Source: Octopus vulgaris (lineage: Eukaryota). Taken from it: a DNA stretch of 64,000 nucleotides. Where the stretch lies: NCBI GenBank assembly GCA_951406725.2, contig OX597836.1, positions 28,706,001 to 28,770,000 of the forward strand, given 5' to 3'. The notes under the pieces are model-generated. The model was not told the origin of the DNA, did not search any database, and saw nothing but the letters and a program-made list of their open reading frames with translations. Each line of letters opens with the position of its first letter. Position 1 is the stretch's first letter. Positions 2,155 through 50,724 of this stretch are shown piece after piece. Made by a program: the position numbers and the translations under genes.

Positions 2155-2720
2155 GTGTATGTACAAAATGCATATCAAAGTTGGAAATTCTGGCAATATT
2201 ATTTGCTGAATTACTGCATAACAAAACAGGAAATAGAAAATACTCTAATTTCCTGTTTTGTTTGATGCGCACGCGTGTGTGTGCGTGTGTGTAGTTTGCA
2301 TGTGCATGAGTGTGTGTGAAGGTGCAAACAAAAGATGATCCTATACAATAATAGTAATAAAGAATTAAAGGCACATACCAGTTGTTCCAGGTGTTACAAC
2401 TGAAATAAAAGAGAAAAACAAAGATGTTAGACATCACCAACTTCACTATCATCAACATCAAGATCATCATCATTATCAACATCATCATCATCATCATCAA
2501 TATCATTATCTTCCTTATGATCAGCATCATAATCAACTTAATTTTTTACTAAAAGAATTTTAAAGTTGTAACCCCCAAAGAGAATATTAATTCTCACAAA
2601 AATATATTATCAACATTTCAAACTTGTTGTGTCCCATTAACTCCAGTGTGTACTTAAAATTATTCATGTTCTGCCAGTTTAGCTGATTATCAAATTCATC
2701 TGATGGAGTACACCTATGCT
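2155..2720 (-). repeat. Duplicated micro-exon cassette, copy 2 (21-nt family)
   Basis: Direct homology to 715-1290. Confidence 0.85.
2379..2399 (-). CDS. 21-nt micro-exon (FVTPGTT)
   Basis: tttttctcttttatttcag|TTGTAACACCTGGAACAACTG|gtatgt; phase 1-1. Confidence 0.82.
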
Positions 2721-3029
2721 GGACAGTTTGACAGGAGCTGGCAAATCAGAAGACTGCGCCAAGTTCTGCTGTCTGAGTTGGTAAGGTTTCTACAGCTGAA
2801 TCTCCTTCCTAACCACTTTACAGAGTGTAGTGGGTGCTTTTTACATGGCGCCAGCAGCAGTGAGGTCATCAAACAACTAAAAGACAAGATCTCTTGACTG
2901 AGGTTGAGGGTAATATTGAGGTAGGTGGCTTTGTGCCAGGTGATTATTAGATTGCTAAAGAATAAGGATACTGCAAGATGATAGGATAATAGAAGGAGAA
3001 ATGAAAGAGAAAATTCCAAAGAGTACAAA

Positions 3030-3485
3030 ATTCTGTAACACTATCTTTGTCCATTTTCTAAAATGGACAAAGATATTGCTACAGAACTTATGTATGAGAA
3101 TTAAGAAGCTGCTCTCAATACACAATGCACACCAACCTAAAAGTAATATCAACAGGCTCTTCCTACATTAAAAGGAAGGAGGCAGAAGACTGTTAAATGT
3201 AGAAGACACTGTTGGAAATATTATATTCAGTTTGAAAAATTATGTTGTATGTAGTGAAGAAGGAATACTATGTCCGAAAATTTACTAAAACAGTAGGAGG
3301 ATTCAAGAATACAAGGAAAAACAACAGAACAAGGAGCTGGAAAGAAATGGAATTACATGGCCAATTCATGCAACAATGATGGCTGTTGAAAGTAAAGAAC
3401 ACTGGTTGTGATTAATGGATGGGAACCTGAAACAAGGCACTAAATTGCTAGTTATAGCTGTTGAAGAACAAGCCATTAAATAGAA
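3030..3485 (+). mobile_element. Degenerate R4/Dong-like non-LTR retrotransposon fragment
   Basis: Remnant motifs RLFLH*KEGGRRLL, WKEMELHGQF and IAVEEQAIK, with stops and frameshifts. Confidence 0.6.
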
Positions 3486-3620: not shown

Positions 3621-3790
3621 AGTCCACTTTCAATATGACTGTGATTGACAAAAGTGTCTTGGATTCTGTTGAATTCATTATTTCAAAGATTATTGATAAA
3701 TCAATTTTTATAATTGGTACGTCAGGTTCCTTAGGATTTGGTTTTACCACATTAAATATAATAAAAAATCTTACAATGAGACTGCCATTT
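3621..3790 (-). CDS. SEA-domain exon 3 (GS-LIV motif)
   Basis: ctgtactatttcag acceptor, T|gtaagt donor; 170 nt, phase 2 to 1. NGSLIVRFFIIFNVVKPNPKEPDVPIIKIDLSIIFEIMNSTESKTLLSITVILKVD; completes GFANGSLIV with the previous exon. Confidence 0.88.
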
Positions 3791-3800
3791 CTGAAATAGT

Positions 3801-3831
<31 letters not shown>

Positions 3832-4039: not shown

Positions 4040-4320
4040 GTGGCAACTGGTGGTGGTGTAACACACCATACTGATCATATCTGTCGGGCATGTGGAAGAG
4101 AGTGTAATTCGTCAGGAGGACTTAAACGACATGCAAAGGTACATGAAACCCAGTTACAACTACAGCCGGCTATTACCAGTAAAGGTTTTAGTTGCCAATT
4201 TTGTACAAGACATTGTAGATCTTTAGCTGGGCTAAAAAGTCACATTCGATCACAGCACCAGTAATAGTTAAGCTTCGTGCAATGGCCATACTCGATAACG
4301 AGGGGGCAGCCATAATGTAA
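4040..4320 (+). mobile_element. RTE-clade LINE 3' end with two C2H2 fingers, inside a (TGTA)n tract
   Basis: HICRACGRECNSSGGLKRHAKVH and FSCQFCTRHCRSLAGLKSHIRSQH; close match to the end of the RTE at 17540-17806; (ATGT)n tail. Confidence 0.8.
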
Positions 4321-4664
4321 GTATGTATGTATGTATGTATGTATGTATGTATGTATGTATGTATGTATGTATATACAAGTGTGTATATATAAGTGCATAT
4401 ATATATGTGTGTATGTATGTGTGTGTGTGTGTGTGTGTGTGTTTATATACACATACACATACGCATCTTGAGTAGATAGATAAAGATTAAAGTAAAAATG
4501 AAAAGGCACACTGTTTTGAATCACTTGCAAAGACATTTAATTTAGAGAGAGAAAGTAGACATATAAAGTTTCTTACAACTGTTTCTTGAATAGTGAAACA
4601 TGAGGATCAACATATACATACATACCTATATATGCGTGTATGTATGGGATATATATATATATAC

Positions 4665-4727
<63 letters not shown>

Positions 4728-4735
<8 letters not shown>

Positions 4736-5658
4736 TAGAAAAAAAACACCTTTTATCAATTCAAAATGAATAATTAAATTACACCATCTAGAAAATTACA
4801 TATAATAGAAAAGTTAAAATTAAAATAACAATTAAAAAGTAAAGATTAAGTAAATTACAAGAATAATGTAATGTATAAAATAGGTATAAATATGTATAAA
4901 TTTGTATGAATTGTTTATATATATATTTCTTTATTGCCCACAAGGAGCTAAACACAGAGGGGACAAACAAGGACAGACAAAGGGATTAAGTCGATTACAT
5001 CGACCTCAGTGCATAACTGGTACCTATTTTATACATTACATTATTCTTGTAATTTACTTAATCTTTACTTTTTAATTGTTATTTTAATTTTAACTTTTCT
5101 ATTATATGTAACTAGCAGTATCGCCCGGCGTTGCTCGGGTTTGTAAGGGAAATAACTATGAAGCATTTTTAGAGAGTTATAGCCAAAAAACAGCAAAAAG
5201 TGCATTAAAAATGGAAAAAAAATTATGGTAAATTTTTTTTTAAATCGTTGACTCATTGTAGACATTTTTAGAGAGTTACTTCCCTTATATTAAAAAATAT
5301 GCATTAAAATGGAAAAAAATGATGGTAAATTATTTTTAAAATCATAGACTCATCGTAGACGTGTGCTAATACCCAGAAGGGCTTGATATGAATCACAAGT
5401 ATAAGATACCCGGTTTTGGTTAAACTGCACCGCAAAATGTGGGAGTAGTTAGGAATCTAAATCGGAGTAGACAGACACACAACTTTTCTTTTATATATAA
5501 AGATTTTCTAGATGGTGTAATTTAATTATTCATTTTGAATTGATAAAAGGTGATTTTTTTCTAATATTTTATATATATTATATTGTGTGGAATTTGATTT
5601 AGTATTTATAAATTGAATTATTTTTCCTTGTAAGTTTGGATTTTATTCCCTCAAATAA

Positions 5659-5660
<2 letters not shown>
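4728..5660. mobile_element. Fold-back element between (TA)n tracts, interrupted by a Helitron
   Basis: 4728-4885 is the reverse complement of 5020-5111 plus 5504-5575. The end cttgtaagtttggattttattccct is a near reverse complement of the starts of the 25692 and 48723 elements. Confidence 0.7.
5112..5503 (-). mobile_element. Non-autonomous Helitron
   Basis: On the minus strand: 5'-TC, subterminal hairpin CCCGAGCAACGCCGGG, CTAG-3'; inserted between A and T with no TSD. A close copy lies at 54238-54631. Confidence 0.85.
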
Positions 5661-5713
<53 letters not shown>

Positions 5714-5904
5714 ATATATATCAAAAGAGGAATTTGGGAAAATATTTGGCATTATTTATTCACCATTACACGTTTCATCTTGGTAACAGGAATTACAAAG
5801 TTGCATGTCTTGGATAAACATGTAATAAATTCCCTATTAGAAATTCTTCAAATAGAAAATCAAATAATACATTTACATTTGGATGAACTGTTTATATATA
5901 TATA

Positions 5905-6135
5905 TTTCTTTATTGTCCACAAGGAGCTAAACACAGAGGGGACAAACAAGGACAGACAAAGGGATTAAGTCGATTACATCGACCCCAGTGTGTAACTGGT
6001 ACTTATTTAATCGATCTCAAAAGGATGAAAGGCAAAGTTGACCTCAGCGGAATTTGAACTCTGAACGTAACAGCAGACGAAATACCGCTAAGCATTTCGC
6101 TTGGTGTGCTAACGTTTCTGCCAGCTCGCCGCTTT
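5905..6135 (-). mobile_element. tRNA-derived SINE family C
   Basis: A-box/B-box-like head on minus (ggcgagctggcagaa...gagttcaaattcc). Other copies or fragments at about 4925-5025, 10410-10570, 14245-14440, 35195-35390, 38135-38345 and 56863-57095. Confidence 0.8.
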
Positions 6136-7003
6136 TGAACTGTTTATATATAATTAATCAGGAGTTGTATATATATATATATATACATACATATATATAT
6201 TATATACATATATATATATATATACATACATACATACATACATACATACATACATACATACATACATACATACATACATACACACACACAACATCACATG
6301 CTATGACAAATACAAAATTTTGGATGCAAGTTATTACAATAACACATATCTCTATTAAAATTGACATATATGCATATATAAAGATAAAAAATACATGAGG
6401 GACCATTGTCAAGTTCCAGGCTTTAGAGGTATCACTAAAGGCTTGGTTGGAGGTCCAACTTTCCAAGTTCTTTTACAGGGCTAAGAAAAACTGAAGGGCT
6501 GCTGCAATAAGTGTGTGAATCTGAGAGGGTAATATGCTGAATAAAATCATAATTAACTGATCCTCCAGTATTTTTTTTACCCAAAGCTAGGAACTTTTTA
6601 GCACCCCCTTGTGTGTGTGTGTGTGTATGTACAATTCAATTAGAGGTTATATTAACCTCATTAAGGGATGGTATCATCCAATGAATTACTGGTTTAATGC
6701 CTAATATTTGTTGTGAACAATAATATTCATAAAACAATACGTTTATATATAAATCATGGCTTATAATCATTCAAAAGAAATTAAGAAAATGGAGATATAA
6801 CATTTAATAAAAATTTTCTTATTTTCTTTACATATATATATATATATATATAATATCTTAACATTATATTCCATATACAATGCTTCAAACGAACTATAAA
6901 ATCTTATTGTATATATATATATAAAACATTTTTATTCTGGAAAAATGGATATATACTTTTGATTCAATAAGAGTGGTGTTATAGACATCATATGAACATC
7001 ATG

Positions 7004-7345
7004 TGGAGGTGCTATGGCCTAGTGGTTAGGGCAGTGGACTCATGGTCATAGTATCATGGTTTCAATTCCCAGACCGGGTGTTGTGAATGTTTATTGAGCG
7101 AAAACACCTAAAGCTCCATGAGGGTGGTAGCAAACTCTGCTGTACTCTTTCAGCACAACTTTCTCTCACTGTTGTATCTGTATTTCAAAGGGCTAGCCTT
7201 GTCATACTTTGTGTCATGCTGAATCTCCCAAGAACTATGTTAAGGGTACACATATCTGTGGTGAGCTCAGCCACTTCCACATTAATTTCATGAGCAGGCT
7301 GTTCCATTGGTTGGCTCACTCATTGTCGTAACTGACAGAGTGCCA
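7004..7345 (+). mobile_element. tRNA-derived SINE family B
   Basis: tggcctagtggttagg...ggtttcaattccc boxes; related copies at 33757-34140 (+), 44680-44985 (-) and about 9460-9850. Confidence 0.8.
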
Positions 7346-7459
7346 TAGTAGTAATAAACATCATATAGTTGTCATTATATAAACTTCTTGCACACAATTT
7401 AAACAGAAAGCAAAGACAGCATTTTATATAAATACACACACACATGTACACTTTTTATT

Positions 7460-7685
7460 GTACAAGGAGGTGCTGAACATTTCTAGTTTTGGGTAAAAGA
7501 AAATACAGGAAGATCAGTTAATTATAATTTTATTCAATATATTCCTCTCTGAGGTTTACATACTTATTGCAGTAGTTCTTTAGTTTTTCTAAGCCCTGCA
7601 AAAGAACTCAGAAAATTGAGCCACCAGCCAGGCCCCTCATGACACCCTTAAAGCCAGGAACTTTTCAGCCCCCCCCCCCTCATAT
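7460..7685. mobile_element. Mariner-type MITE
   Basis: Imperfect TIRs (aggaggtgctgaacatttct / aggaacttttcagcccccc); a related end lies at 6400-6610. Confidence 0.55.
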
Positions 7686-8120
7686 ATAAACTACAACACA
7701 AGCAAGTATGTAAAGGCACATGCATAAATGAATACGCACAAAATGAATATTCACGGATTTGATTTAGGTATTTGAATTAGTAACGAATATTGTTTTTTAA
7801 AAAAAGATCAATGTAAATTACATCTGTATTTAATTAATTAAATATGTAATGTATAAATTATGAGAAAATGTGTGTAACGCTTGATGCCAATAAATTATTA
7901 TTGTTTCTTATTGTGCACTGTCCACTTTTAGCTCTATACCTATTACTCACTGCTTGAAGCTTACACTCAGATCTCTGGATTGTATTTTTATATATTGATA
8001 TGTATATATCTATTTATACACACTTATATATAAAGAAAAAGTGCAGAATATTTGTAACTTTGAAGTTTTCTTCATAACAGCTCATTACAATATCAGAAAC
8101 AACTATCTCAGAAATAATAA

Positions 8121-9147
8121 CACTGGTCTGCATTTGGGAATTTTTTAATTTTTATTTTTGTTCATGGATGTGATCTTACATATTCTTGGGTTGCTGATTT
8201 TAAATATAAAAACCATTTTGCTCTATCATGCAAAGATTTTCAGTAAAATGCAAATTAATAATAATAAAAATTGTGAACTTTTAATAAATTGTCACTTTGT
8301 CAAATTGAAGCAAGTAATCATGGAAAAGCATTTTCTGTTAGATTTAAGAACGTATGTATAACAAATCAACATGAAATGAATCATGTTCATCATGAAATGA
8401 ATAATGAAGAATCAACATCAAATCAAATGAATGCGAAAAAGATATGCTCCTAATGGTTAGCCTACATATTGATTCAAATGAAGGATGACTGCTTTGGATT
8501 CTGCTTGTGTTGTGCATCCATACCATCATGTGTTAATGACCAGAAGTAATCTGCCATCATGCTGACATTCAATTTGCCCTAGTATTGAATTTCCATGGTG
8601 CAAATATACTCAGGGAACTGCTCTCCTTGTTTCTCACTTTTTCCCTACAATTCTTGGGAAAATAGTCAAGATGTAAGTGCAAAAGTACATCTTGACACTT
8701 ATTCTAGACCCAAGTTGTTGGAAACAAAATCGGGTCTTGGATTACTTTTTCATATTCTGGGGAGTAGCTGTTTCCCAAAAAGTCTTGGACTTCTGCTTGC
8801 AGGAAAACCAGGCATTCACCTCAACACCTGCTAATGCTTCCTCAAAACGCTTGTCCTTCATCAATTCCCGAATCTGAGAGTCAACAAAGATTCCTGCCTT
8901 TAGCTTGCCTTCACTTATATGAGGAATTTAATGTTATCAACTAATAAGTCAATATAAGGTAATCATTTTCACTGGTAATATACTATATCATTATCTTATG
9001 TTATACAAAAAGTGAAAAGTAACATTCCTGTATAACATGAGAATCTGATGTGATAGAGATGAATAAAAAACACTATGAATCACTATTTTTCATATATATT
9101 TTGAAAAAGATAGCATACAGTTAATAAAAAATCATGCAGACCAGTAT
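8121..9147 (-). mobile_element. Chapaev3-like (CMC superfamily) DNA transposon relic
   Basis: TIRs cactggtctgcat / atgcagaccagt. Minus-strand remnants ISEGKLKAGIFVDSQIRELM, EKQGEQF...MEIQY*G and MMADYFW. Family assignment is from recalled motifs, not a search. Confidence 0.65.
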
Positions 9148-10212
9148 AATTACAGCAGATTCTCATTATATACAATAAAAATCATTAAAATTCTTGAGAT
9201 AACAATGGTGAAGTTGATGGTGGAGGTGGGGTAGAGGAAGTTATGGTGGTAGTGGTGGTGGTGGTGGTGGAGGAGGAGGAGGAGGAGGAGGTGGAGGAAG
9301 TGGTGGTGGTGATTGTTGGCTGGTGGTGGTGATGTGGTATAATGGCATTAGCAATATTGATAGCAGTATTGGTGACATTAGTAGTCTCAAAGATAGATTG
9401 AAATGGTTATGATGCTACTGGTGGCACTTCTTCTTGTCTTCTGGCCATCCAATAATGTGTGAAGGCATGTGGCTTAGTGGTTAAAGTATTGCATTCATGA
9501 TCATGAGATCATGATTTCAAATCCCAGACCAGCTGTGCATTGTGTTCTTGAGTAAAATACTTCATTTCACATTACTCCAGTTCACCCCCACTGCAGTTGG
9601 GTAATCTTGTAATAGATTGACATATCAAGGGTGAAATTGGTACTCAAGAAAATCACCCAAATGGAGGTTTTGTGAACGCTGGACTGTATTCAGCAGTTGA
9701 GAGAATGAATAGTGCAAACTGTTCTGTAACTGTCGACAGTTTGGGATTGCTTGTTCCACCATTTTGAGGGATGAATGAATGAACGAATGTCTTCCAGCTG
9801 TCAAGCAGACCTTTCATAAAAGATGTTCCAGCCAAGGCCTTCCCTTTTTCTTTCTTCTAAGATTCTATGACTGATGAACTTATTCCCTTTTTTAAGTCAG
9901 TAGTATGTGTTACAATTTGATAAATTTGATTGGAACTTCTAGCTAATCAGGATATCTCAAAGTCACAAAAGGACTTCCACATTAGCTTGAGGTACCTGCA
10001 ATGTGTGTGTTTGTGTGTGTTTGTGTGTGTGTTTGTGTGTGTTTGTTTGTGTGTGTGTTTATGTATGAGTCGTGTTTGTGTATGTGTGTGTGCATGCATG
10101 TACATAAACATATGTATATGTGCATATATTTGTGTGTATGTATAGATTTGCATATATATATATGTTGTGTATATGTATCCATGTGTATGTATATCTATCT
10201 GTAATATATATC

Positions 10213-10246
<34 letters not shown>

Positions 10247-10815
10247 CACACACATGCTCACATTATACATATATGTATGTACCCATACATATATGCAGAC
10301 ACATATACACATACATACATACATGATTATATAAGTAGATAGATATGACAAATAAAAAACAGTATTATGATAATAGTCACATATATGATATAAGGTCATG
10401 AATTATGCAGGAAAGGGTTAGTCAATTTCATCAACCCCTGTATTTAGCTGGCTGTTCATTTCATCCCTCCTAAAATGCTTGAAAGTCAACCTCAGTGAGA
10501 TCTGAACTCAAAACATAAAGCAGTCGTAACTAAACACTGCAAAGCATTTGTATTTCAGCCACACCCTAACAGTAGTAGTACTCGCAATCCATTTATAATG
10601 CTGGTGGTTGTGGTGGTAGCAGTAGTTTTGGTGTTGGTGGTGGTGGTGGTGGTGATGGTGGAGGGATGTATAATATTTTTGTATTTTTTCAGTGATTGTG
10701 ATAATGAAACCATGCATAAAAATGAAATCATGCACAGAAAACTAACCTGCCGAATCTGCTGAGAAATTTTTAGAAAACAGAAATAAAACTTTCTTTAAAT
10801 TGAGAAAACAATTTA

Positions 10816-11143
10816 CAGACATACCTCAACTTATGTTGGTGATTGGTTCTCAGACTTGTGACCTTACTTGCAAATCAATGTAATACGGAAAACCTTTTAG
10901 AGAATCTATTAATTTGTAGATGTTTTGATAAATGGTTTGAGCATATTTTTACATGTACTTTATATAATTTATATGATTATATTTTAAATAATTTTTATGC
11001 TTTATCTATGTTCTCTGAGACCAATGTAAAAATCAGATAAATTAATTGAAATTGAAGTTTATTTTTTTCATTAAATTCTTTCAAAAAATGATGTAAAGTC
11101 AAGAAAGATGTAACTCGAAATAACATAAGTTGGGGTATGCCTG
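10816..11143. mobile_element. pogo/Tigger-like MITE
   Basis: TIRs cagacatacctcaacttatgtt / aacataagttggggtatgcctg, with TA on both sides. Confidence 0.75.
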
Positions 11144-11427
11144 TATGCCAAAGAATGAATCGTTTCAATATAGTTTTATTTTATTTGTTCATTTATCCTT
11201 TATCTTTTATCTTTTACTTGTTTCAGTCATTGGACTGTGGCCATGCTGGGGGTACTGGATTAAAGGGCTTTTAGTTGAACAAATCAATCTCAGAATATAT
11301 TTTTAAAGCCTGGTACTTATTCTATCATTCTTTTATGCTGAACTGTAAAGTTATAGGGATATCAACAAACCAACACCAGTTGTCAAGTCATGGTGGGGGA
11401 CTAACAAATGCAAAGACACACATTCAT

Positions 11428-12268
11428 ACAGGTGTAGTCCGATCAATAAGTACCCGGCACGCAGAGTAATGCTGTTTGGCATAGATTGATCTTGACATCT
11501 ACTGTACATATGCACTAAGTTTTAGGGCTATAGCTCACTTCTGCTGTTCACAACAGTGCTTGGAAGGAAGGTGTGTAGCATGTGATTGTCGCATTGACCT
11601 GACAGAAAAAGTTGAGCAGAGAAATCTGCATCAACTTTTGACATAAGCTTGGCAATATCTGCTCAGAGGCCTATGCAAAGCTTTCAAAAACTTTTCATTA
11701 TTTTCGACACAATAAAATAGATCTTGTGCAACTGAAACCTGAGTGTCTTCTTGGTCAGCTGAAAGCAATTTTGGCACAAACTTGGCAGACACGCATCCCA
11801 TATCCAAATCTTCAGTGATAATGAACTGAACTGAACCATAACTAATCTGCACATCCTCTGATAACTCATGGATGGTGTTTTGATGATTTCCCCTCACAGC
11901 TGCATGCACATCTGCAATATTTTTCTCAGTTCTGTTGGATGTGGGTCTCCCAGAATGTTCGTCACTATCGTCATGTTTTCGGCTCAAACACTCTCCATAC
12001 ACTTTCTGCAACTTTGTGTAGGCTTCTGAGTAGGTATCACCAACCGTTTGGCAAAATTTGATGCAGATTCATGGTCAATGTGATGATCACATGCTACACA
12101 CGTTCCTTCTAAGTACTGTTGTAAACAGCAGAAGTGCACTAGAATGTTAAAACTTATTGCACATGCACAGCAGAGTTCAAGATCAATCTGTGCCTAGTGG
12201 CTTTACCCTGCATGCTTTAGCTTTGTTACAATGGCAACAGTCCGGTTACTTATTGATCAGGTCACGCA
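11428..12268 (-). mobile_element. Mariner-derived element with N-terminal transposase remnant and long inverted ends
   Basis: ORF 11631-12011: DDSDEHSGRP...TIHELSEDVQISYGSVQFIITEDL...SAKFVPKLL (WVPK-like). TIR core gatcaataagta at both ends; about 11430-11670 is an inverted copy of 12040-12265. Confidence 0.85.
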
Positions 12269-12400
12269 TATGCTGCTGTTGTTTCAATGATTTCATTTGT
12301 AGAAGAGCTCAAAGTTGGAGAGAGATAGATGAAGAGAGAGAGAGAGAGAGAGAGAGAGAAGTAGAAAGAGAAAGTGAAAGAGTCAAACAGACAAACTTAC

Positions 12401-12468
12401 GCAAATCCAGTTACTTTGGTTCTATTGTAGACACCAGCCAGTGAGGAGTTTTGATAGATCTTGTCCAT
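12401..12468 (-). CDS. SEA-domain exon 2
   Basis: tttcactttcag acceptor, GC|gtaagt donor; 68 nt, phase 0 to 2; MDKIYQNSSLAGVYNRTKVTGF(A). Confidence 0.88.
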
Positions 12469-12549
12469 CTGAAAGTGAAAATATCTACAAGTCAGTTTAG
12501 AATTCTTACCTCTATTGACATACAGTTTGTGAAATGTCAAATAAGTTTC

Positions 12550-12765
12550 ACCCTTAAGCATTTAAACCAACCATATTTGGTCCAAATATTCAACCAGTTT
12601 TATGTTTAAACAAGCCAGATGTAACCTCTTGCACTTAAACTACAATGTCATTCTAAAAAATATATTATCATATCAGTGAAATCTCAAAGCTACATAATTA
12701 ATTCAAAACAATGTGAATAAAATAAGTATTACATTTAATAGAGTAATCTGAATGATAAAATTAGG
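12550..12765. mobile_element. Degenerate piggyBac-type MITE
   Basis: Begins acccttaagcattta and ends ctgaatgataaa, resembling eroded CCCTTTAGCATT termini. Confidence 0.4.
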
Positions 12766-13499
12766 TATTATGAGGAGAAGAACAATCTAATGTTTAATTC
12801 TCTGTTAAAGAACACCTGCCTAAAATATTAAACTTTCTATGCTTCATGTTGGTCAATACAGATTCTAAGTAAAATATTTAAATTTAAAAACTTATCCTAT
12901 TGAAATAAGAACTGGAATGATTGAAGATGGGTTAAGAGTAAGGTTATGCTAAGAGAAGTTCAGTTGACCTGTTTGTCTGTATTGCTAGATTGAAATCATT
13001 AAATTGTCTGTGTATGTCCATGTATGTATATATGAGTACATGAGTGTGTGTGTGTGTGCATGTGAGTATGTGTGTGTGTGTGTATAGAGGTAGTAAGGTA
13101 GATAAATGTAGTTAGGCTTGAGACACATATATACTTGGAGCACAAAATACAGACTATAGAATAAAGAAAAGAAGAAAAAATGATGTAATATTGTATCTTG
13201 ACAGCTGTTTGAAGATGGCCACAAAATGCATAATGCCTATATTCATATGCAATGTGAGCCTGATGTCATTGCTGTGTGCCCAGTGACAAGTTAGGCTTCT
13301 CTTTTCAAGAGAAGAGTAGCATTTTGGTTTCTTGAAAACTGGAAGTTGCTTTATTAATATTGTTTGTGAAAGCTAAAAATCAGTCTCATAGAGTGGAGGA
13401 CAGAAGAGCAAGTGAGGGAAATCTAAGTGAAAACAGAAAGTAGAATGGTATTTTACACTGATCCAAAAAGTTGTGTGAACTTTTGGTGGCATGTGTGCA

Positions 13500-13563
<64 letters not shown>

Positions 13564-14449
13564 TTCCTTATGTGTATGCAATTGTGGGATTGCATTCAAC
13601 ACAGGAATCTCAAATACAGAATCCCTGAAATGTTTTACAAATTTTCACTAATCGATTGTATTTGAAGAATGGGAATCAGTCTGTCCTGTTTTTTGCTTTT
13701 GGAAAATCTCACAATTTCTATGTTTGTATGCAAATCTGTTTGTTTCATAGTCTGGTTAGCAATGATAATCGGAACAAATGAAAAAATATAAGGCTGGATA
13801 TAAGAGCTGTACAGTTTTCATTTGTTTTCCATAGATGTTCTTCCCCTTAATTTTTGAAAAGACCTTTGCATGACGTTTGCACCCTGCCCTATGCAACCAT
13901 ATCAGACCTGTTGTTTTATACATAGAGTCACTGCTGTTTATTGAAATATTCCACCAGAATACTCTATTAAAAGGGTGGATATATTCTGCTTTTGGTGTGC
14001 TTTTGGTATGGCTATCAGAACAGTCCTTTCTGTGTATTGGCATTGCATATGGCTTTAAAAACAATGTCATGTGTCATGAGAAGGTAGTACCCCATAAACA
14101 TTTTTAGACAGCTTTTAACTTTATGAGTGATATCTTCCACACTGCTATGGCACATTCGACATTCTCTATCACAACATGGAAGTTAAAAGGAATCTTTTAC
14201 TTCTCTTATTGATCAGGTATTTACTATCTATCTCTACTTGAATAATCCTTTCTACTATAGGCACAAAGCCTGAAACGTTGAGAGAGGGGGATAGTGAATC
14301 ACACTGACCATAGTACTCAGCTGGTACTTATTTTATTGATCCCAAGGGGGTGAAAAACAAAGTCAACCTTAAGAGAATTTGAACTCAGAACATAATAAAT
14401 GCTGCAAAGTGTTTTGTCTGACATGCTAAGAATTATGCCACTTCACAAC

Positions 14450-15825
14450 TTTTCTGTTCCTGAATATGCTAACCAGACTATGCAATGTTTCGAGTGACAT
14501 AGACTCTTCAAGAGCAGAAGACCATCCCTGGAAGACGATGAGAAATCTGAAAGACCTGCTATGTGCATCACCCCCTGAAATGTGGTATTGTGCATTGAGA
14601 ATTTATCACCCAGGTCCAGACCATCAATCAAGAGTTAAGTGCCACACCCAAGCGGTTGAGGGAACCTGTGGAAGAGGTAGACCCAGGAAGACCTGGGATG
14701 AAGTGGTGAAGCACGACCTTCGAACATTAGGCCTCACTGAGGCAATGACTAGTGACCGAGATTTTTGGAAATATGCTGTGCTTGAGAAAACCGGGCAAGC
14801 CAAATAAAACCATAACCTCGTGGCTTATGCCAGGGATGTAACCAGCCCACCTTTCCTTCATTGGACACTAAACTCTGCTTGCAAAGACCTGTTGAGGCAA
14901 GTGAAATCGAAATCAAATTCAATGATTGGCATCTGTACTAGTGGAGCGCTAAGAGAACCATCTGAGCATGATCGTTGCCAGAGCAGCTAACTTGCTTCCA
15001 TACTGGTGGCATGTAAAAAGCACCATTCAAGCGTGATTGTTGCCAGCATCGCCTTACTGGCACTTGTGCCGGTGGCACGTAAAAAAACATTCAAGCGAGG
15101 TTGTTGCCAGTGCCACTGGACTGGCTCTTGTGCAGATGGCATGTAAAAAACACCATTTGAGCATGGCCGTTGCCAGTACCACCTGACTGGCCCTCATGCC
15201 GGTGGCATGTAAAAGCACTCACTACACTCTCAGAGTGGTTGGCATTAGGAAGGGCATCCAGCTGTAGAAACTCTGCCAGATCAAGATAGGAGCCTGGTGT
15301 AGCCATCTGGTTCGCCATTCCTCAGTCAAATCGTCCAACCCATGCTAGCATGGAAAGCAGATGTTAAATGATGATGATGATGATTTTGAAGTATTTGAGG
15401 GAGAACATTTGGTAAAAGCAACTGGATCTGTGGGGTATGAAGAATTGGATTCTTCATAATGACAATGCACTCTGTCACCAAGCTCTCCTCACTCATGAGT
15501 TTCTCTTCATAAATAACATGGCATTGCTTCTACACCTGCCCTATTCACCAGATTTAGCACCTGCGGATTTCCATCTCTTCCCCCCAAGAGGAAAATGCTG
15601 TCCAAAAGTCACCATTTTAACGCCATAGTTGAGATTCAAAGCGAATCGCAGAAGGTCCTCAACTTGGTTACTGAAAACGACTTCCAGGCTAGATTCCAAA
15701 AGTGACAAGAACATTGAGACTGATGTATTGTTGTGACTTTTTTGAAGGATCTGATGTTAAAATTTGATAAAGAAGTTTTTATTACACATAACTCGTCCTG
15801 AAACTTTTTGATATCACCCCACATA
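14450..15825 (+). mobile_element. Decayed mariner transposon interrupted by an RTE 3' fragment
   Basis: CFE*HRLFKS..SLEDDEKSERP and GIVH*EF before the insertion; WILHNDNA...PYSPDLAPADFHLFP after it; TIR-like end aactttttgatatcacccca. Confidence 0.8.
14630..15383 (+). mobile_element. RTE-clade LINE 3' end with (GAT)n tail
   Basis: VEGTCGRGRPRKTWDEVVKHDLRTLGLTEAMTSDRDFWK, then a 3' UTR with internal tandem repeats. Same family at about 30580-30730, 31850-32100, 41750-42090, 52160-52505 (RT piece), 53203-54205 and 58410-59165. Confidence 0.85.
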
Positions 15826-15949
15826 CATTTGATAATATTGAACAACTGATACAATTAAGCTAACTGGATTTCAACAAAATTAAAAACTCACCAGTCAAAC
15901 ACACACATACACACACACAAGCATATATTAGTATGAGAATAATTCAAAC

Positions 15950-16056
15950 CTTTTCTTCAAATTCTTTGGCCTTTTGCTGTGCTTCAGGTGAAGACATATC
16001 TGCTAGGGCTGGCACATATGTATCATTTAATTTTACAGAAGATTCCACTATCACTT
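15950..16056 (-). CDS. SEA-domain exon 1
   Basis: tttttgttctgtttttcag acceptor, AAG|gtttga donor; 107 nt, phase 1 to 0. VIVESSVKLNDTYVPALADMSSPEAQQKAKEFEEK fits the SEA N-terminal pattern (beta strand, N..Y...L.D..S.E, helix). Confidence 0.88.
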
Positions 16057-16099
16057 CTGAAAAACAGAACAAAAATACATGCATTATATCATATGCCTT

Positions 16100-17806
16100 T
16101 GGCAACATCTTTTAATCATCAAGTGACGAAGTGCATCCCTTGACCAAGTTTGCATACATGAGACGGATAACATCATAAGACTTGGAAGGTAGTACCTTGA
16201 GAAACATTCCTTGTCTGATAACCTTAAATACATGCCCAAAGAAGTAGCACAACTCTACCACAATGTATCATCAGATGAAAGGATGAGCCTATATGAGCAG
16301 AAGACTATGCATGAATATGTTACTAGAAAGCTCCATGATGATAGTAACATTCATCATCAAAGCAGTCTATCATGTCTTTGTCTTCTTGCATATGTCACGC
16401 CGACTCCAGGCAGTGCAAGCATCAGAGAATGCATTCAAAATGTGTTGCATATCAATCTCTGTGTGCGCTACTAGATCACAATCATCTGCATACAAAAGGT
16501 CTCTTATGATAGAGGTAAATACCTTTGTTTTTGCAGCAATATTACTTCTATCATAAGAGACCTTTTGTATGTAGATGATTGTGATCTAGTAGCGCACACA
16601 GAGATTGATATGTAACACATTTTGAATGCATTCTCTGATGCTTGCACTGCCTTAGGATTGACAGTCCGTCTCAAGAAAACTGTTGTCATGTACCAACCTG
16701 CCCCTGGTAAGCAGTATAGTGAACCAAATATCTACATGTATGGTAAACAACTTGGTGTAGTTGATCAGTTTGTCTACCTGGAAAGCACTGTTAATAGATA
16801 TAGCAATTTGGATAATAAAATTCCATACAGAATTAGGAAAGCAAGTGATGTTTTTGGAAGGCTAAGAAAGGTACCTCTGGAGTCAACGAGACATATGCAG
16901 GAAGACAAAGATAAAGGAGTACAAGGCGTATGTGCTCTCTTCTCTTATTTATGCCTGCGAGATGTGGGTCACATATCAATACTACCATAAACAACTGGAA
17001 CGTTCCCATCAAATGTGTCTCAGATGGATCTATGGCATTAAGTGGGAGGACCACATCAGTGATCTTGAAATACTCGAAGGCTCTCGGTGTGGAAGTATAG
17101 AAGCTCTTGTGTTAAAGCAAAGGCTCAGATGGAGTGGTCATCTGGTCAGGATGAAGGATTCAAGGATGCTAAAACAACTCTTTTATGGAGAGTTAGCTAA
17201 AGGAGAACGATCTCCACATAAACCAAAAAAGAGGTATAAGGACTTGCTGAAGGCTTCCTTAAGAGATGCTAGCATCTCTCCTGACATATGAAAGGGCATA
17301 GCTATTGACTGTAGCAGGTGGAGAAGGATTGTGCATGAGGGGACAGCTACTTTTGAGAAATCTCAAGTTGTGCATGAAAAAGTAAAGAGGGATGTCAGAG
17401 AGGGCATAGCTGTTGCACTTCCAGATGATAAGGATCTTCCTATGATGCTGACATGCAGTGTCTGTGCAAGACCCTGCTCAGTAAAGCTGGACTCAAGAGT
17501 CATCTTTGTAGTGAAACACATAATTGACAACCAGACTGCTGGTTGTGGTGCTACACACCATGCTAAACATATCTGTCAAGTATGTAGAAGGGAGTGTAAT
17601 TTTGCGGGAGGAATTAAACGACATGCAAAGGTACATGAAGCCCAGTTACAACTACAGCTGGCTATTGCCAGTAAAGGTTTAAGCTACCAATTCTATACAA
17701 GACATTGTTGATCTTTAGCTGGGCTAAAAAGTCACATTCGATCATGGCACTGATAACAGTTAAGCCCAGTGCAATGGTCATACTCAATAATGAGTGGGCA
17801 GCCATC
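16100..17806 (+). mobile_element. RTE/BovB-like LINE, 5'-truncated, with an inverted 5' segment
   Basis: RT end (DLLYVDDC, GLTVRLKKT, DQFVYL), QRLRWSGHLVRMKDSRMLKQLFYGEL, C-terminal C2H2 fingers and an (ATGT)n tail. 16408-16518 is an inverted copy of 16542-16652. Confidence 0.88.
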
Positions 17807-17813
17807 ATGTATG

Positions 17814-17847
<34 letters not shown>

Positions 17848-17884
17848 TGTATGTATGTATGTATGTATGTATGTATGTATGTGT

Positions 17885-18850
17885 CTTCTATTTTTTTTAA
17901 TTATTATAAATCTTTCACTGAGGAGGGTGAAGGTTTCCAACAAAGATACAAGGCTCCATCTTTGGGATGTAGTTAACACAGACAAATTCACATTTGGAAC
18001 TTGAGAAAAGAGTTGCATATTTTTACTGTTCCACTTACAGATTGCACTCGTAATGCACGAATCAGCCGGTTAGTTTCTCTTTCTGAAAATCCCAGTTTAT
18101 CCAGATTCTCCTTTAAGCATTTACTAACAAAACCTAGTGCTCCAATTATTATTGGAATGAATATGAATTCATAGTCTGGATACAGAAGCTGAAGGTTTCG
18201 AAATAGTTGTCCATAGATATCCTCTTTTTCTTTAATTTTCAAAGAGATATTTATATCTGTAGGGCAGCTGACCTCTATGATGGTACATACTTTTTGCCCC
18301 TCTGCCCCGAACAACAATATCTGGTCTGTTATGTTTACATTTGACAGAAATTTTGATGGGAATATTCCACCAGTATTCCTTGATTTGGTGTTTATGAATG
18401 TATTCCGTAATAGAGGCATTTTCTAAGTTTATTTTAGGATAGTCTTTTTCGTGGATGGCATTATAAATTGTTTTGGTAACAACATTGTACCGCAAATGGA
18501 GGTAGTACTGTGACAACATTTTAGGACAGCTGCTAATCACATGCGTGATGTCTTCTACAGAAACATGTAGCCTACACATGCAGTTGAACCTTATGATTAC
18601 AAGAGCATCACTCTCTGTTGTTCACCAAGTACTTTGTAGTAATCTCCTGTTCCTGGATTGCAAATGCATAGCCTTCAAAGTGTGATGTGATGTAGTGGTC
18701 TTGTGTCCAAGAGAGACTGTGCTTCATGTCAATTCTACTGTCTTTTACAAGCTTCTGGGTAACATACCCAGGCATAGTCTTTTTTTTTGTATGCTGAGTG
18801 CTTTCCATCCAGGTCTTCTCTGAGGTAAGAGAGCCCAGCTGTTTTGGGCT
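17885..18850 (-). mobile_element. R4/Dong-clade non-LTR retrotransposon 3' part (zinc knuckle + restriction-like endonuclease)
   Basis: AIQEQEI, CRL..EDITHVISSC, LRYN (RHN-like), HNRPDIVV, IIEVSCP...EKEDIY and IPIIIGALG; frameshifted; flanked by (TACA)n on both sides. Confidence 0.85.
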
Positions 18851-18851
18851 G

Positions 18852-18883
<32 letters not shown>

Positions 18884-18934
18884 TGTATGTATGTACATAT
18901 GTACATATATATATGTATATATTTTTTTTTTTAT

Positions 18935-19756
18935 TGTTTCATTTTTCTATTTGTTTCAGTCATTTTGACTACGACCATGCTGGAGCACCACCTTAAAGGG
19001 TTTTATTGGAAGAAGTCAATCCCAGGACTTATTCTTTGTAAGCCTAGTAGCTAGTCTATTGGTCTTTTTTGCCAAACTGCTAAGTTAGAGGGCTGTAAAC
19101 ACACCATCATCACTTGTCAAGTGATAGTGGGTGGGTGGGGGGAGAAACACAGACACAAAGACACACATATACATATATATACATATATATATATATACTT
19201 AATAATTAGGCTTCAGCAAAGATTTGCTTTACCACATACCGAAGTTTAGAAATAGCAGCCAAAAAACCTTAGCTATTTCTTCTACTTTAAAAAGGGACCC
19301 CCAGAGATGGATGACCAGATATTGATTGATTTTCGTTGCTTTCCTCTCTGCCTGTGTGAATTGTATTCAAGTATTTTGGTTTCTCTGGGAGTCCCTTTTT
19401 AAAGTAGAAGAAATAGCTAAGGTTTTTTGGCTGCTATTTCTAAACTTTGGTATGTGGTAAAGCAAATCTTTGCTGAAGCCTAATTATTAAGTATATATAT
19501 ATATATGTATATATATGTATATGTGTGTCTTTGTGTCTGTGTTTCTCCCCCCCACCCACCCACTATCACTTGACAAGTGATGATGGTGTGTTTACAGCCC
19601 TCTAACTTAGCAGTTTGGCAAAAAAGACCAATAGACTAGCTACTAGGCTTACAAAGAATAAGTCCTGAGATTGACTTCTTCCAATAAAACCCTTTAAGGT
19701 GGTGCTCCAGCATGGTCGTAGTCAAAATGACTGAAACAAATAGAAAAATGAAACAA
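18935..19756. repeat. Long near-perfect inverted repeat (~370-bp arms, ~75-bp spacer)
   Basis: 18935-19307 is the reverse complement of 19382-19756; each arm contains a SINE 3' half, (TA)n and about 110 bp of other sequence. Confidence 0.92.
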
Positions 19757-19856
19757 AAAAAAAAGACACTGCCATGCAATTACTTCAATTCTTAAGTTAC
19801 TATTTATATACTAAAATAACAATTTGAAGTTTGAATCTCTTCAATTCAATACTTAC

Positions 19857-19871
19857 GAGGTTCTGGAGCCA
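19857..19871 (-). CDS. 15-nt micro-exon (stalk, LAPEP)
   Basis: cctttttcttatatttttcag|TGGCTCCAGAACCTC|gtaagt; phase 1-1, paralog of 21123-21137. Confidence 0.8.
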
Positions 19872-20358
19872 CTGAAAAATATAAGAAAAAGGAAAACTTA
19901 ATGAAGGTTTAGAATGGCATAACAATTAATTTGGTATTTTAATTGAATAACTGATTCTTTACAGAAACACAAACCTTACATTTTCTTATGCAAATGATTT
20001 TGTTGAAGTAATATATATATATAACAATACAACAAATTAGACATACTGTGGTAAAAATGTGTGTATGTGTGTGTGGGTGTGGGTGTACATACACACACAC
20101 ATACACACACACACACATAAAATGATATGATAAAATACATACATGCATACATATATAAAATTAATATAAACAGTAGGTTGCAATATTTCACCAAAAAGGA
20201 TAATTATAATTGTCACTAAATTTGACTAAGGTGTTAAGAAACAACCACATTGCTAGAAATATCAGCTAAAATGCTCTAATGCTGTAGTTAATGCACATGA
20301 ATCAAAACATATACACTAACAGGGACCTGAAGTGTCCGAAAAATGCTGATCAAGAATT

Positions 20359-20407
20359 CTCAATACTGATGTCAGTTTCGGCAATTTCTGTTGCCTCATC
20401 AATTAAG
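20359..20407 (-). ncRNA. Minimal type I hammerhead ribozyme motif
   Basis: cttaa-TTGATGA-ggcaa(cagaaa)ttgcc-GAA-ACTGA(ca)TCAGT-A-ttgag. All three stems pair; C3U core variant; GUA cleavage triplet. Confidence 0.65.
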
Positions 20408-20447
20408 CTTGCTTGATCTCATCTTCTTCAGCTTGCTTCTCTATTAG

Positions 20448-20454
<7 letters not shown>

Positions 20455-20514
<60 letters not shown>

Positions 20515-20850
20515 TGTGTACAGTGCTCAGGTGCACTACAACTCATCTAAAGTGTATATATAATCAGGTGTAGTTTCGGCGGATTTCGGAAAGCATGAGG
20601 GCCTTAAAGGATGCAGTGTCATGGCAGTCAACAACTGATGCAGGCAGTTTATTCCATGCTTCAGCAACTCTGAGCGTGAAAAAATGTTTCCGAAAGTCAT
20701 GGGGGCTGTGTTGTTTTCTGACTTTGTAGGCATGTCCACGTGTGTTAGACACATGGAGATCAAAAAGGTGTTCAGTGTTGTTGTTGGTGAGGTGGTTGAT
20801 AACTTTGTGGGTGTTTACCAAGTCCGTCGCCAGACGCCGGTATGTTTCCG
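20455..20850 (-). mobile_element. CR1-clade LINE 3' fragment with (ATT)n tail
   Basis: RRLATDLVNTHKVI...NTRGHAYKV...RKHFFTLRVAEAWNKLPASVV. Confidence 0.8.
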
Positions 20851-21122
20851 CCACCCAAATTAATGGATGATTAGCGATTCACTAATGTTTATACATAGAA
20901 TTAATATAAACAGCAAGTTGCAATATTTCACCAAAAAGGGGAATTATAATTCTCACTAAATGTGACTAAGGTGTTAAGAAACACCTATAGTGCCAATTCA
21001 ATGACTGAAACAAAGAGAAAAGGTGAAAAAGACATTGCCATGCAATTACTTCAATTCTTAAGTTACCATTTATATACTAAAATAACAATTTGAAGTTTGA
21101 ATCTCTTCAATTCAATACTTAC

Positions 21123-21137
21123 GAGTAACTGGGGCCT
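21123..21137 (-). CDS. 15-nt micro-exon (stalk, EAPVT)
   Basis: cctttttcttatatttttcag|AGGCCCCAGTTACTC|gtaagt; strong splice sites, phase 1-1, paralog of 19857-19871. Confidence 0.8.
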
Positions 21138-21703
21138 CTGAAAAATATAAGAAAAAGGAAAACTTAATGAAGGTTTAAAATGGCATAAAAATTAATTTAG
21201 TATTTTAATTGATTAATTGATTACTGATTCTTTACATGAACACAAACCTTACATTTTTTATGCAAATGATATTGTTGAAGGAATATCCCTCTCTCTCTCT
21301 TTCGGAGAGGCACTGAGCAGCTATACGCACACATACACACACGGCAGTAACTTCCACCTACCGAATTCAATCACAAAGCTCCGGTCGGCTCGGGGCTATA
21401 GTGGAAGACACCTACCCAAAGTGCCACGCAGTGGGACTGAACCCGAAACAATGTAGCTAGGAAGCAAGCTCCCTAACCACACAGCCATATATATATATAA
21501 CAATACAACAAATTAGACATACTGTGGTAAAAATGTGTGAATGTGTGTGTGTGGGTGTGTGTACATACACACACACATATTCGCATAATCACCAAACCTG
21601 GAGTTTAACTATGGTCTGTCCATAGTAGTTACTTAGCGTTACCTGACACCTTTGGGTCTTATTGACACCATTACCTTTCATAACCTCTCTCTCTCCCTCT
21701 CTC

Positions 21704-25694: not shown

Positions 25695-26254
25695 TAATAA
25701 AATATTAGGGAATAAATCCAAACTTACAGGGGAAAATCAGATTTAGGATTGAATCCAATTTTATAGTAAAATATTATATTATATTAAATTAGAGATAAAC
25801 CACTATTAGGCAAATCAAACAATGAAAAACTTAAGCCAATACATAAAATTAATTAATTTATATTATTTTAAATATATATCAAAATTATTAAAAGTTTAAT
25901 AAAAGATAATGAGTAAAACCCTACGATCGTTTCATGGCTATCAAATTCGTAATAATTCGAGTTATGGTTACAGTCAATCTTCAGGTAATTGAAATATTTA
26001 TCTTAGCGAGGTTTAGCAATGACCTCGCTAAGATAAATATTTCAATTACCTGAAGATTGACTGTAACCATAACTCGAATTATTACGAATTGGACAGCCAT
26101 GAAACGATCGTAGGGTTTTACTCATTATCTTTTATTAAACTTTCAATAATTTTGATATATATTTAAAATAATATAAATTAATTAATTTTATGTTTTGGCT
26201 TAAGTTTTTCATTGTTTGATTTGCCTAATAGTGGTTTATCTCTAATTTAATATA

Positions 26255-26258
<4 letters not shown>
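25692..26258. mobile_element. Fold-back mini-element with mirrored hammerhead-like motifs
   Basis: Arms about 25776-26012 / 26022-26258 with a 9-nt loop. CTGAAGA at 26050 and GAAACGATCGTA at 26101; stem I is weak. A second family copy lies at 48723-49040. Confidence 0.75.
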
Positions 26259-26289
<31 letters not shown>

Positions 26290-27244: not shown

Positions 27245-28310
27245 CTACTATCACTTTTGTCTAATGTCAATTTGGTCTAATGACTTTGGTCTAATGAAAA
27301 TTTGATCTAATGACAGTTTAGTTTAATGTCAATGTTTAATGTCAATTAGTTTAATGACACTTTGGTCTAATAACTCTTTGGTTTAATGACACATTAGCGT
27401 AATATCATTTTGGTCTAATGACACTTTGGTCTAATAACGCTTTGGTTTAATGAGACATTAGCGTAATATCATTTTGGTCTAATGACACTTTGGTCTAATA
27501 ACGCTTTGGTTTAATGACACATTAGCGTAATATCATTTTGGTCTAATGACACTTTGGTCTAATAACGCTTTGGTTTAATGACACATTAGCATAATATCAT
27601 TTTGGTCTAATGACACTTTGGTCTAATAACGCTTTGGTTTAATGACATATTAGCGTAATATCATTTTGATCTAATGACACTTTGGTCTAATAACTCTTTG
27701 GTTTAATGACACATTAGCGTAATATCATTTTGGTCTAATGACACTTTGGTCTAATAACGCTTTGGTTTAATGACACATTAGCGTAATATCATTTTGGTCT
27801 AATGACACTTTGGTCTAATAACGCTTTGATTTAATGACACATTAGTGTAATATCATTTTGGTCTAATGACAATTTGGTTTAATGACACTTTGGTCTAACA
27901 TCACCTTCGTCTAAAGGCAATTTACTCAAAAGTTAATTTGATCTCATGACACTTTGATCTTAGGACAGTTTAATGTAATATATATTTGACTTAATGACAG
28001 GTTGGTCTAATGTTGATTTGGTCTAACAACTGTTTGGTCTTGCAACTGTTTGGTCTAACATCACTTTAGCCTAAAGACAGTTTCATCTAATGTTAATTTG
28101 GTCTAATGTCAATTTGGTTTCAAGAGAGTTTAGTTTAATATCTATTTGGTCTACGGAGAGTTAGTCTCCTATCAATTTGACCTAATGACACTTTGGTCTG
28201 AAGAAAGTTTAGTTGAATGGTACTTTGATCTAAGGATAGTTTAGTCTAATATCAATTTGGTCTAATGACATTGGTCTCTTGACACTGGTCTAATGTAAAC
28301 TAGGTCTAAT
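27245..28310. repeat. 16-bp minisatellite with a 64-bp higher-order core
   Basis: Monomer about tttggtctaatgacac. attagcgtaatatca (or a 1-nt variant) recurs every 64 bp from 27393 to 27841 (8 copies); diverged monomers lie on both flanks. Confidence 0.92.
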
Positions 28311-28954: not shown

Positions 28955-29410
28955 CATGTGTGTGTGTAAAAATGCAAAGAAAAGATGATCATATATAATA
29001 ATAAAATTAAATTAAAGATACATACCAGTTGTTTCGGAAATTCCCACTGCAAAAATGGAAGAAAAAATTAGATTAGATATCATCAACGTCACTATTATCA
29101 TTATCATCATCATCAACAACAACAACAACAGCAGAAGCAACAACAACAACAATAACATCATCATATTCAAAATAAATTTTTCTCTGAAACAATTTTGAAA
29201 TTGCAACCTCTAAAAAGGATATTAATTCTAACAAAATAATTTATCAACATCTTGAATAGCTCCAGTATGTGTACTTAAAACTACGCATGCTCTGTTAGTT
29301 CAGCTCTTTATTTATTAAATTCATCTGGTGATGTACATCAAACAGAAAGTCTATAGCATATATATGCTCTGGAAACCAAATTAACAAATCTAAGCTGTCA
29401 GTCCATATTC
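28955..29410 (-). repeat. Duplicated micro-exon cassette, copy 3 (21-nt family)
   Basis: Colinear with 915-1350 (tgcaaagaaaagatgat, cataccagttgtttc, ttagatatca, aaattcatctggtg, agaaagtctata). Confidence 0.8.
29026..29046 (-). CDS. 21-nt micro-exon (stalk, VGISETT)
   Basis: ttttttcttccatttttgcag|TGGGAATTTCCGAAACAACTG|gtatgt; phase 1-1. Exon and flanking introns are homologous to the micro-exons at 2379-2399 and 983-1003. Confidence 0.8.
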
Positions 29411-50453: not shown

Positions 50454-50724
50454 CTTGGCCAGAAAAATAAATGGCCACGACAATTCCAGCAGCAACGCCT
50501 ATCACCACAAGTAGAATTCCAAAAATTATTAGAAACTTCTTGCAATTGTGGCCGTTGGAAGAATAATCTGAAGGCATGTCATCCCAGTCATTGTTACTCT
50601 CTCCAGAAAATAAAGTTTGCTTCTGTGTGTTTGGCCAGGTGCGCTGCAGCCGACTCACCAGTTCTGGCTGATAAGCCAAGTTGTCGTATTGAGGGCCCCA
50701 TTCTTTGTCAGCTGCATTTGAATA
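50454..50724 (-). CDS. Exon A of a type II transmembrane SEA-domain protein (cytoplasmic tail + TM helix)
   Basis: Acceptor ctttttcctttggcag and donor G|gtaagt; 271 nt, phase 0 to 1. Encodes YSNAADKEWGPQYDNLAY...NCKK-FLIIFGILLVVIGVAAGIVVAIYF-SGQ. Basic residues before a ~24-aa hydrophobic helix suggest type II topology. Joins in frame to the downstream exons. Confidence 0.9.

Follow-up and report, generated by a model that had tools for sequence, protein, structure and literature searches.

Work by Teshima and Innan in 2008, as cited in the 2011 review by Fawcett and Innan, reportedly dealt with the divergence peak. In that review, exon 5 of the opsin genes is described as a pair of tandem duplicates with a divergence peak under gene conversion, and shared variants are taken to mark the conversion (Fawcett and Innan 2011, PMC3924837). 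The locus analyzed here, a window of 64,000 nucleotides of Octopus vulgaris DNA (contig OX597836.1, positions 28,706,001 to 28,770,000), resembles human red/green opsin exon 5, as portrayed there, in its homogenised introns, diverged exon, tandem duplicates and shared variants. Unlike the opsin genes, the octopus pair consists of modules within a single gene; its target is either 15 nt long or made up of three SEA exons, divergence is lowest in the nearest flanks, and a functional difference between the copies is only hypothetical. If the analogy holds, the mechanism at work would be the already known one behind the opsin-type divergence peak.

Four other described systems provide points of comparison. 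With enteropeptidase and other type II transmembrane serine proteases (PMC9663175), the octopus gene shares transmembrane (TM), SEA, LDLa, MAM, SRCR and trypsin exons, all oriented the same way, and the His, Asp and Ser motifs, whereas it has two SEA domains, several MAM exons, LDLa and MAM-like exons past the protease and linkers made of micro-exons, and no CUB exon was recognised by eye in the exon scan of the gene. The alternatively spliced micro-exons of Li et al. 2015 (PMC4317164) are similar in their length divisible by three, near-invariant flanks and downstream TGCATG; however, those exons are conserved and brain-biased in mammals, whereas in the octopus the exon is the variable part. 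Schistosome micro-exon genes (PMC4350168, PMC10526429) also have short symmetric exons, but the coding sequence of the octopus gene does not consist mostly of short exons, and its eight candidates form the linkers of a large modular membrane protein, so that the host gene is not a micro-exon gene of the schistosome type. In viper three-finger toxin genes (PMC2474615), exons are likewise more variable than introns; in the octopus gene, omega between the first and second SEA domains (SEA1 and SEA2) is 1.06, which does not differ from 1 (p=0.86).

Splice sites were scanned over the window plus a further 200 kb, which outlined the host gene on the minus strand. It is a single-copy gene of the predicted arrangement TM-SEA-SEA-LDLa-MAM-SRCR-trypsin, and its TM and SEA exons have genome matches at this locus only. 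The exon encoding the cytoplasmic tail and TM helix is followed by a 21-nt micro-exon and the two 15-mers; next come the three exons of the first SEA domain, four more micro-exons of 21 nt and the three exons of the second SEA domain, and after these a micro-exon of 30 nt and the LDLa, MAM, SRCR and trypsin exons. The following exons and candidate exons lie within the window, in the order of the gene:

50454..50724, minus strand: exon encoding the cytoplasmic tail plus the type II transmembrane helix, matching O. bimaculoides P0004 at 77/90 positions
29026..29046, minus strand: 21-nt phase 1-1 micro-exon candidate GISETT, a paralogue of the linker micro-exons, skipped by model P0001
21123..21137, minus strand: 15-nt micro-exon candidate of phase 1-1 (copy 1) with APVT as internal codons, read as EAPVT in model P0001
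19857..19871, minus strand: 15-nt micro-exon candidate of phase 1-1 (copy 2) with APEP as internal codons, read as LAPEP in model P0001
15950..16056, minus strand: SEA1 exon a
12401..12468, minus strand: SEA1 exon b
3621..3790, minus strand: SEA1 exon c
2379..2399, minus strand: 21-nt linker micro-exon candidate VTPGTT, with a matching peptide in O. bimaculoides P0008
983..1003, minus strand: 21-nt linker micro-exon candidate APPETT, with an identical exon 3.1 kb further on, outside the window

The hydrophobic stretch in exon 50454-50724 is common to the homologues and would act as a signal anchor, giving the predicted type II topology, and the SEA, LDLa, MAM and SRCR exons make up the stem of a transmembrane serine protease of type II. 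Pfam matched PF01390 in P0001 and, in nine exons, returned PF00057 for one, PF00629 for two, PF00530 for two (one below the cut-off), PF00089 for two, a weak PKD match for one and nothing for one. The trypsin exons combine PF00089 with the sequence motifs TAAHC, SDIALL and GDSGGP of a putative catalytic triad. The eight micro-exon candidates occur amid many domain exons of 68-271 nt, and all eight keep the frame and encode Pro/Thr-rich peptides (7/16 and 16/27 residues are S, T or P); from this composition and from general knowledge of mucin-like linkers, we infer that the stalk is an O-glycosylated spacer.

The homologues compared (O. bimaculoides P0004 and P0008, Argonauta hians P0014 and Potamilus P0037) are all uncharacterised predictions. 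P0014 contains TM, a short stalk, one SEA domain, a Thr/Pro linker, LDLa and MAM in a single protein, 57-70% identical to the host-gene exons except for SEA2 (40%); because it joins TM through MAM, it ties the exons in the window to those downstream. It differs from the octopus gene in having only one SEA domain and a long linker of 7-residue repeats. P0037 spans SEA to trypsin. The homologous stalks in Argonauta, Solemya and one Logan protein are Pro/Thr-rich, unequal in length and poorly alignable. Both 15-mers are part of the predicted O. vulgaris protein P0001, whose SEA region is joined unlike that of the Argonauta protein and unlike the exons found here. Protein searches returned no transcript-based orthologue covering the 15-mers, and none of the papers listed by literature searches describes this gene or these exons. 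No RNA data set was listed for 12300-21300, a result without bearing on expression.

The 15-mers, which are likely spliced, judging from the sequence, as micro-exons between the TM exon and the first SEA exon, are each embedded in a duplicated cassette of about 290 nt, and further homologous pieces reach to about 20150/21840 (20011-20103 versus 21487-21579 differ at 4/93 positions). The cassettes and the motifs that they share are:

21000..21287, no strand: duplicated cassette 1, micro-exon candidate and intron flanks, from local alignment
19726..20015, no strand: duplicated cassette 2, from local alignment
21039..21044, minus strand: TGCATG (RBFOX-type motif), 79 nt past the copy-1 donor
19773..19778, minus strand: TGCATG (RBFOX-type motif), 79 nt past the copy-2 donor

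A genome search of the 2.8-Gb assembly identified exactly two copies of the cassette and no third copy that could have donated LAPEP. Both 15-mers have a pyrimidine tract with a CAG acceptor, a GTAAGT donor, a frame-keeping length and stop-free, Pro-rich codons. In their 15-nt length, phase 1-1 and TGCATG at +79 in both copies, they match the symmetric length and downstream motif of alternatively spliced micro-exons; TGCATG is present within 300 nt downstream in 3/8 of the micro-exon candidates, and we infer by analogy with PMC4317164 that it may function at the cassettes.

A preliminary description of this DNA claimed that the two 15-mers are about ten times more diverged than their own introns. 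Its counts were reproduced exactly: on the minus strand, at an ungapped offset of 1266, 21123-21137 and 19857-19871 differ at 5/15 positions (19860, 19861, 19862, 19867 and 19871, the first three adjacent), the donor-side introns (19765-19856 versus 21031-21122) at 2/92 and the acceptor-side introns (19872-19946 versus 21138-21212) at 3/75, and the Fisher test of exon against intron that it proposed yields p=0.0004. These two flank windows, however, end just short of two indels. Across the full alignable cassette (255 columns, two indels), the exon differs at 5/15 and the introns at 11/240 positions, which lowers the contrast to 7.3-fold (p=0.001); because the cassette introns appear to have been homogenised after the duplication, as argued below, this figure is likely not a ratio of rates. 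If the three adjacent mismatches are taken as a single event, three events remain (p=0.04), and the chance that 5 of the 16 cassette differences fall in some 15-nt window is 0.068. G+C mutation bias was considered as a cause, and the contrast persists after correction (expectation 0.84 differences; P(>=5)=0.001, P(>=3)=0.048). Thus, the contrast is real and its base is three to five events. The first residue of each peptide (E, L) is set partly by the upstream exon.

The states of the cassettes in other animals were sought in contigs of four runs, which matched cassette 1 with 5, 4, 1 and 0 records (10 in total). X20 contributed one unrelated 41-nt match and X11 none, and X2 had no depth on the cassette. 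Such graph contigs drop variants, and words of 31 letters were assumed from the 30-nt overlaps; a first contig placement was swamped by repeats, and from that run the piece table alone was used. In X19 (98% read), a 179-nt contig of depth 13.1 equals cassette 1 without a difference, including EAPVT, and ends at 21148. Two arms begin at 21119, one of the cassette-1 type with G at 21149 (depth 6.3) and one of the cassette-2 type (depth 7.44); the fourth record is unrelated. Aligned with cassette 1, the cassette-2-type arm shows 6 differences plus a gap of 7 nt, and aligned with cassette 2 it shows 5 differences, where EAPVT with a cassette-2 intron is expected to show 6 and 5 and pure cassette 2, 11 and 0. 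The cassette-2 acceptor intron accordingly exists in X19, where it is identical to the window across 183 nt. Apparently, both acceptor introns join EAPVT in this animal, LAPEP having been replaced. In X18 (76% read), a 219-nt contig of depth 77.6 carries EAPVT and G at both 21149 and 21178; it ends at 21188, one base short of a copy-specific site, and continues in a single cassette-1 arm of depth 38.1, the three remaining records being unrelated.

The copy-specific bases in question are these:

21149..21189, no strand: conversion-marker sites 21149, 21178 and 21189 in the acceptor intron, with states shuffled between copies and animals

At 21149/21178, window copy 1 has A/A, window copy 2 A/G, X19 copy 1 G/A and the X18 contig G/G. 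The copy-specific bases are thus arranged in three ways in three animals, and such sharing of variants is the mark of conversion set out in PMC3924837. Comparison across individuals, which the preliminary description had suggested, revealed an EAPVT exon unchanged in both other animals covering it (X18 and X19) and shuffled intron bases, but none of the 10 records over the four runs bears LAPEP. Depth fits, under a rough Poisson model, favour two EAPVT copies (chi2 0.27-0.61 in X19, 0.02-1.86 in X18). The EAPVT/cassette-2 contig of X19 could, however, be a graph chimera, given that the identical 40-nt stretch exceeds the word size, and the depths do not reject such a chimera from a window-like layout in which one site is heterozygous and bubbles were removed (chi2 2.52, 2 df). 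A single-allele arm in X18 is likewise not rejected (1.53), and other window-like layouts fit poorly (8.9, 15.8). Furthermore, the changes at 21149 and 21178, both of them A/G, could be recurrent.

The module that holds the SEA exons is itself internally duplicated (window 2715-16089 versus G000:C23:28691030-28698258). Along a collinear chain, the two modules differ at 86/336 exon positions (26%; six of these columns border exons owing to a one-base counting offset, and the count by codons is 86/330), at 86/572 positions within 300 nt of the exons (15%, a figure that local alignment may push downwards) and at 103/2608 positions beyond (4%), with p=1e-19 for near flank versus deep intron. Three blocks of deep intron are particularly similar:

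13500..14466, no strand: deep-intron block with a 94% identical counterpart in the second SEA module
10629..11430, no strand: deep-intron block, 90% identical overall, with 10/500 differences over 10822-11345
2715..3313, no strand: deep-intron block, 99.3% identical to its counterpart (4/599)

Two deep blocks were searched genome-wide and have one close copy each, the next best matches being partial and 70-84% identical, so that a fresh transposon insertion behind the identity is ruled out for these two. About 10 kb of intron in the SEA modules gave no alignment at all. Global intron windows of fixed length yield divergences of 0.15-0.23 that mostly do not differ significantly from the exons (p=0.003 for windows of 30 nt and 0.05-0.46 for those of 60-140 nt), because these windows include non-homologous sequence. 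Since the SEA flanks and 4-fold sites are far more diverged, the duplication is older than the 1-4% of the deep introns implies, and conversion is therefore the most likely cause of their homogeneity. The ongoing conversion that goes with an opsin-type peak would thus show in the 94-99% identical deep-intron SEA blocks and, subject to the assembly caveat given above, in the marker mosaic of the 15-nt cassettes. The SEA profile is stronger evidence for conversion, and possibly for selection, than the 15-mers.

We favour, with modest confidence, the explanation that conversion homogenises the cassette introns, and a weakly constrained stalk peptide retains older differences. The 15-mers would be tandem duplicates that splicing inserts, as micro-exons, into the stalk, rich in Pro and Thr, of a membrane protease resembling enteropeptidase, and the cassette duplication would have a greater age than its 3% flank divergence indicates. 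Strand exchange stops at dense mismatches. Short conversion tracts would run both ways between the cassettes and mostly halt at the cluster of exon mismatches; in the window cassettes, identical runs of 58 and 40 nt stop at the first exon mismatch on either side. Constraint on splice signals, arising from the needs of a micro-exon, would help to hold the nearest flanks fixed, and an occasional tract would cover the exon, leaving two EAPVT copies, as the X19 contigs suggest. The stalk peptide, likely an O-glycosylated spacer, would need only to remain in frame, so that changes would be tolerated. The Pro/Thr-rich, length-variable stalks and the omega of 1.06 point to such weak constraint on the ectodomain peptide. 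The same process would act on the larger SEA duplication.

Gene conversion, one of the options in the preliminary description, is therefore the best supported of them, through the marker mosaic, the X19 contig and the deep-intron SEA blocks. Models of selection plus conversion expect the most divergence in the flanks nearest the exon, which are the least diverged here, so that constraint or tract-stopping must be added. The proposed constraint on intronic splicing signals has something in its favour: there are 0/80 differences within 40 nt of the exon and 11/160 farther away (p=0.018, with a window picked post hoc), and the 55 nt next to the donor and the 40 nt next to the acceptor are free of all 11 intron differences.

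Positive selection on the 15-nt stalk peptide, the other reading put forward in the preliminary description, is not supported: over the four internal codons, pN is 0.30 and pS 0.41, and EAPVT is invariant in three animals, whereas LAPEP seems replaceable in X19. In a broader form, selection would favour a difference between the two stalk peptides, as well as between the two SEA domains, and, as in opsins or toxins, purge conversions covering exons or fix changes fast, a possibility that we regard as real but doubtful. All five 15-mer differences fall within the exon, and the monotonic 26%/15%/4% peak around the SEA exons, too, is as this explanation expects. At the SEA domains, 0-fold sites (55/211) exceed the flanks at a distance of 51-300 nt (54/344; p=0.004), an excess not expected from drift alone, and seven codons have three differences where 1.9 are expected. 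SEA1 exon c is identical to that of O. bimaculoides at only 32/56 residues compared to 77/90 for the TM exon, and SEA2 has an excess of private changes, 15 versus 5 for SEA1 in the comparison with Argonauta (p=0.04) and 11 versus 5 in the comparison with P0008 (p=0.21). Conversely, omega between SEA1 and SEA2 is 1.06-1.07, not different from 1 (p=0.85-0.86), 4-fold sites (6/24) are as diverged as 0-fold sites, and a block-level test (3/3 exon blocks diverged versus 1/4 deep blocks) gives p=0.14; moreover, the indels that separate the SEA exon blocks from the converted deep blocks would form a neutral barrier. Selection for the divergence of the SEA exons is plausible, and selection for different domains is more plausible there than at the 15-mers.

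It also seems rather unlikely that the gene is a nested, intragenic counterpart of the opsin system, in which conversion homogenises the internal repeats and selection keeps the ectodomain exons apart, with the entire five-residue exon swapped and animals segregating EAPVT-LAPEP and EAPVT-EAPVT. Quite improbable is an account without conversion, that is, a recent duplication after which purifying selection preserved the splice signals in the introns and the exon took up a few neutral changes, including one multi-nucleotide mutation. It would accommodate the undiverged 40 nt next to the exon, the TGCATG kept in both copies and the flanks conserved over 75 bp known from PMC4317164 for symmetric alternatively spliced micro-exons, as well as the p=0.04 for three events and the scan null of 0.068; however, unless they are assembly effects, the shuffled markers and the EAPVT/cassette-2 contig go unexplained, as do the 94-99% identical deep-intron SEA blocks. 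That one or both 15-mers are unspliced or cassette 2 is an assembly product, making the contrast biologically meaningless, is hardly credible: P0001 is only a prediction with deviant SEA joins, cassette 2 adjoins a near-perfect palindrome and LAPEP was unseen in the X18 and X19 contigs, but both 15-mers have strong splice signals, keep the frame and lack stops in their Pro-rich codons, the cassette-2 acceptor intron is present in X19, and five clean substitutions would be an unlikely consensus error.

If conversion has indeed acted on the introns, an exon-versus-intron contrast between tandem copies cannot be read as positive selection, and the octopus gene displays this at both scales. The SEA duplication, with its 26/15/4% profile, offers a compact case in which to test, inside one gene, whether exons are shielded from conversion by selection or by indel barriers. 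The host gene encodes a cephalopod membrane protease that is uncharacterised and incompletely annotated and has an ectodomain that changes fast.

The 21-nt micro-exon candidates form a five-member family (29026-29046, 2379-2399, 983-1003, G000:C23:28703838-28703858 and 28699825-28699845) with variable 5' parts, invariant last 8 nt and homologous intron cassettes, and the matching linker of Argonauta has 7-residue repeats. Exons are more diverged than introns in 9/10 of its pairs, which are non-independent, an excess that is marginal at most (p 0.049-0.58; column test p=0.15), and in the youngest pair the exon differs at 0/21 and the intron at 2/168 positions.

The SEA self-cleavage motif is Gly-Ser-hydrophobic. 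SEA1 exon c (3621-3790) starts with NGSLIV and SEA2 exon c (G000:C23:28691767-28691927) with NGSIDT, which departs from the motif, so that the two domains may differ in autoproteolysis. Downstream of the trypsin exons, on the same strand (G000:C23:28549000-28618000), there are LDLa and MAM-like exons and a 27-nt micro-exon candidate encoding PASEETPS; these belong either to a longer mosaic protein or to a second gene. P0039, a second SEA/Fz/LDLa/trypsin/MAM protease model, is a paralogue located outside the 264 kb examined.

Near-perfect palindromes with arms of 216-384 nt, 97-99% identical, are present at 18926-19764, adjoining cassette 2, at 25775-26259 and at 45584-46389, with three more within the adjacent 200 kb; they are either foldback duplications or assembly effects. 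The window also contains minisatellite arrays at 27253-28295, with periods of 16/32/64 nt, and at 53376-54058, with periods of 67/101/168 nt.
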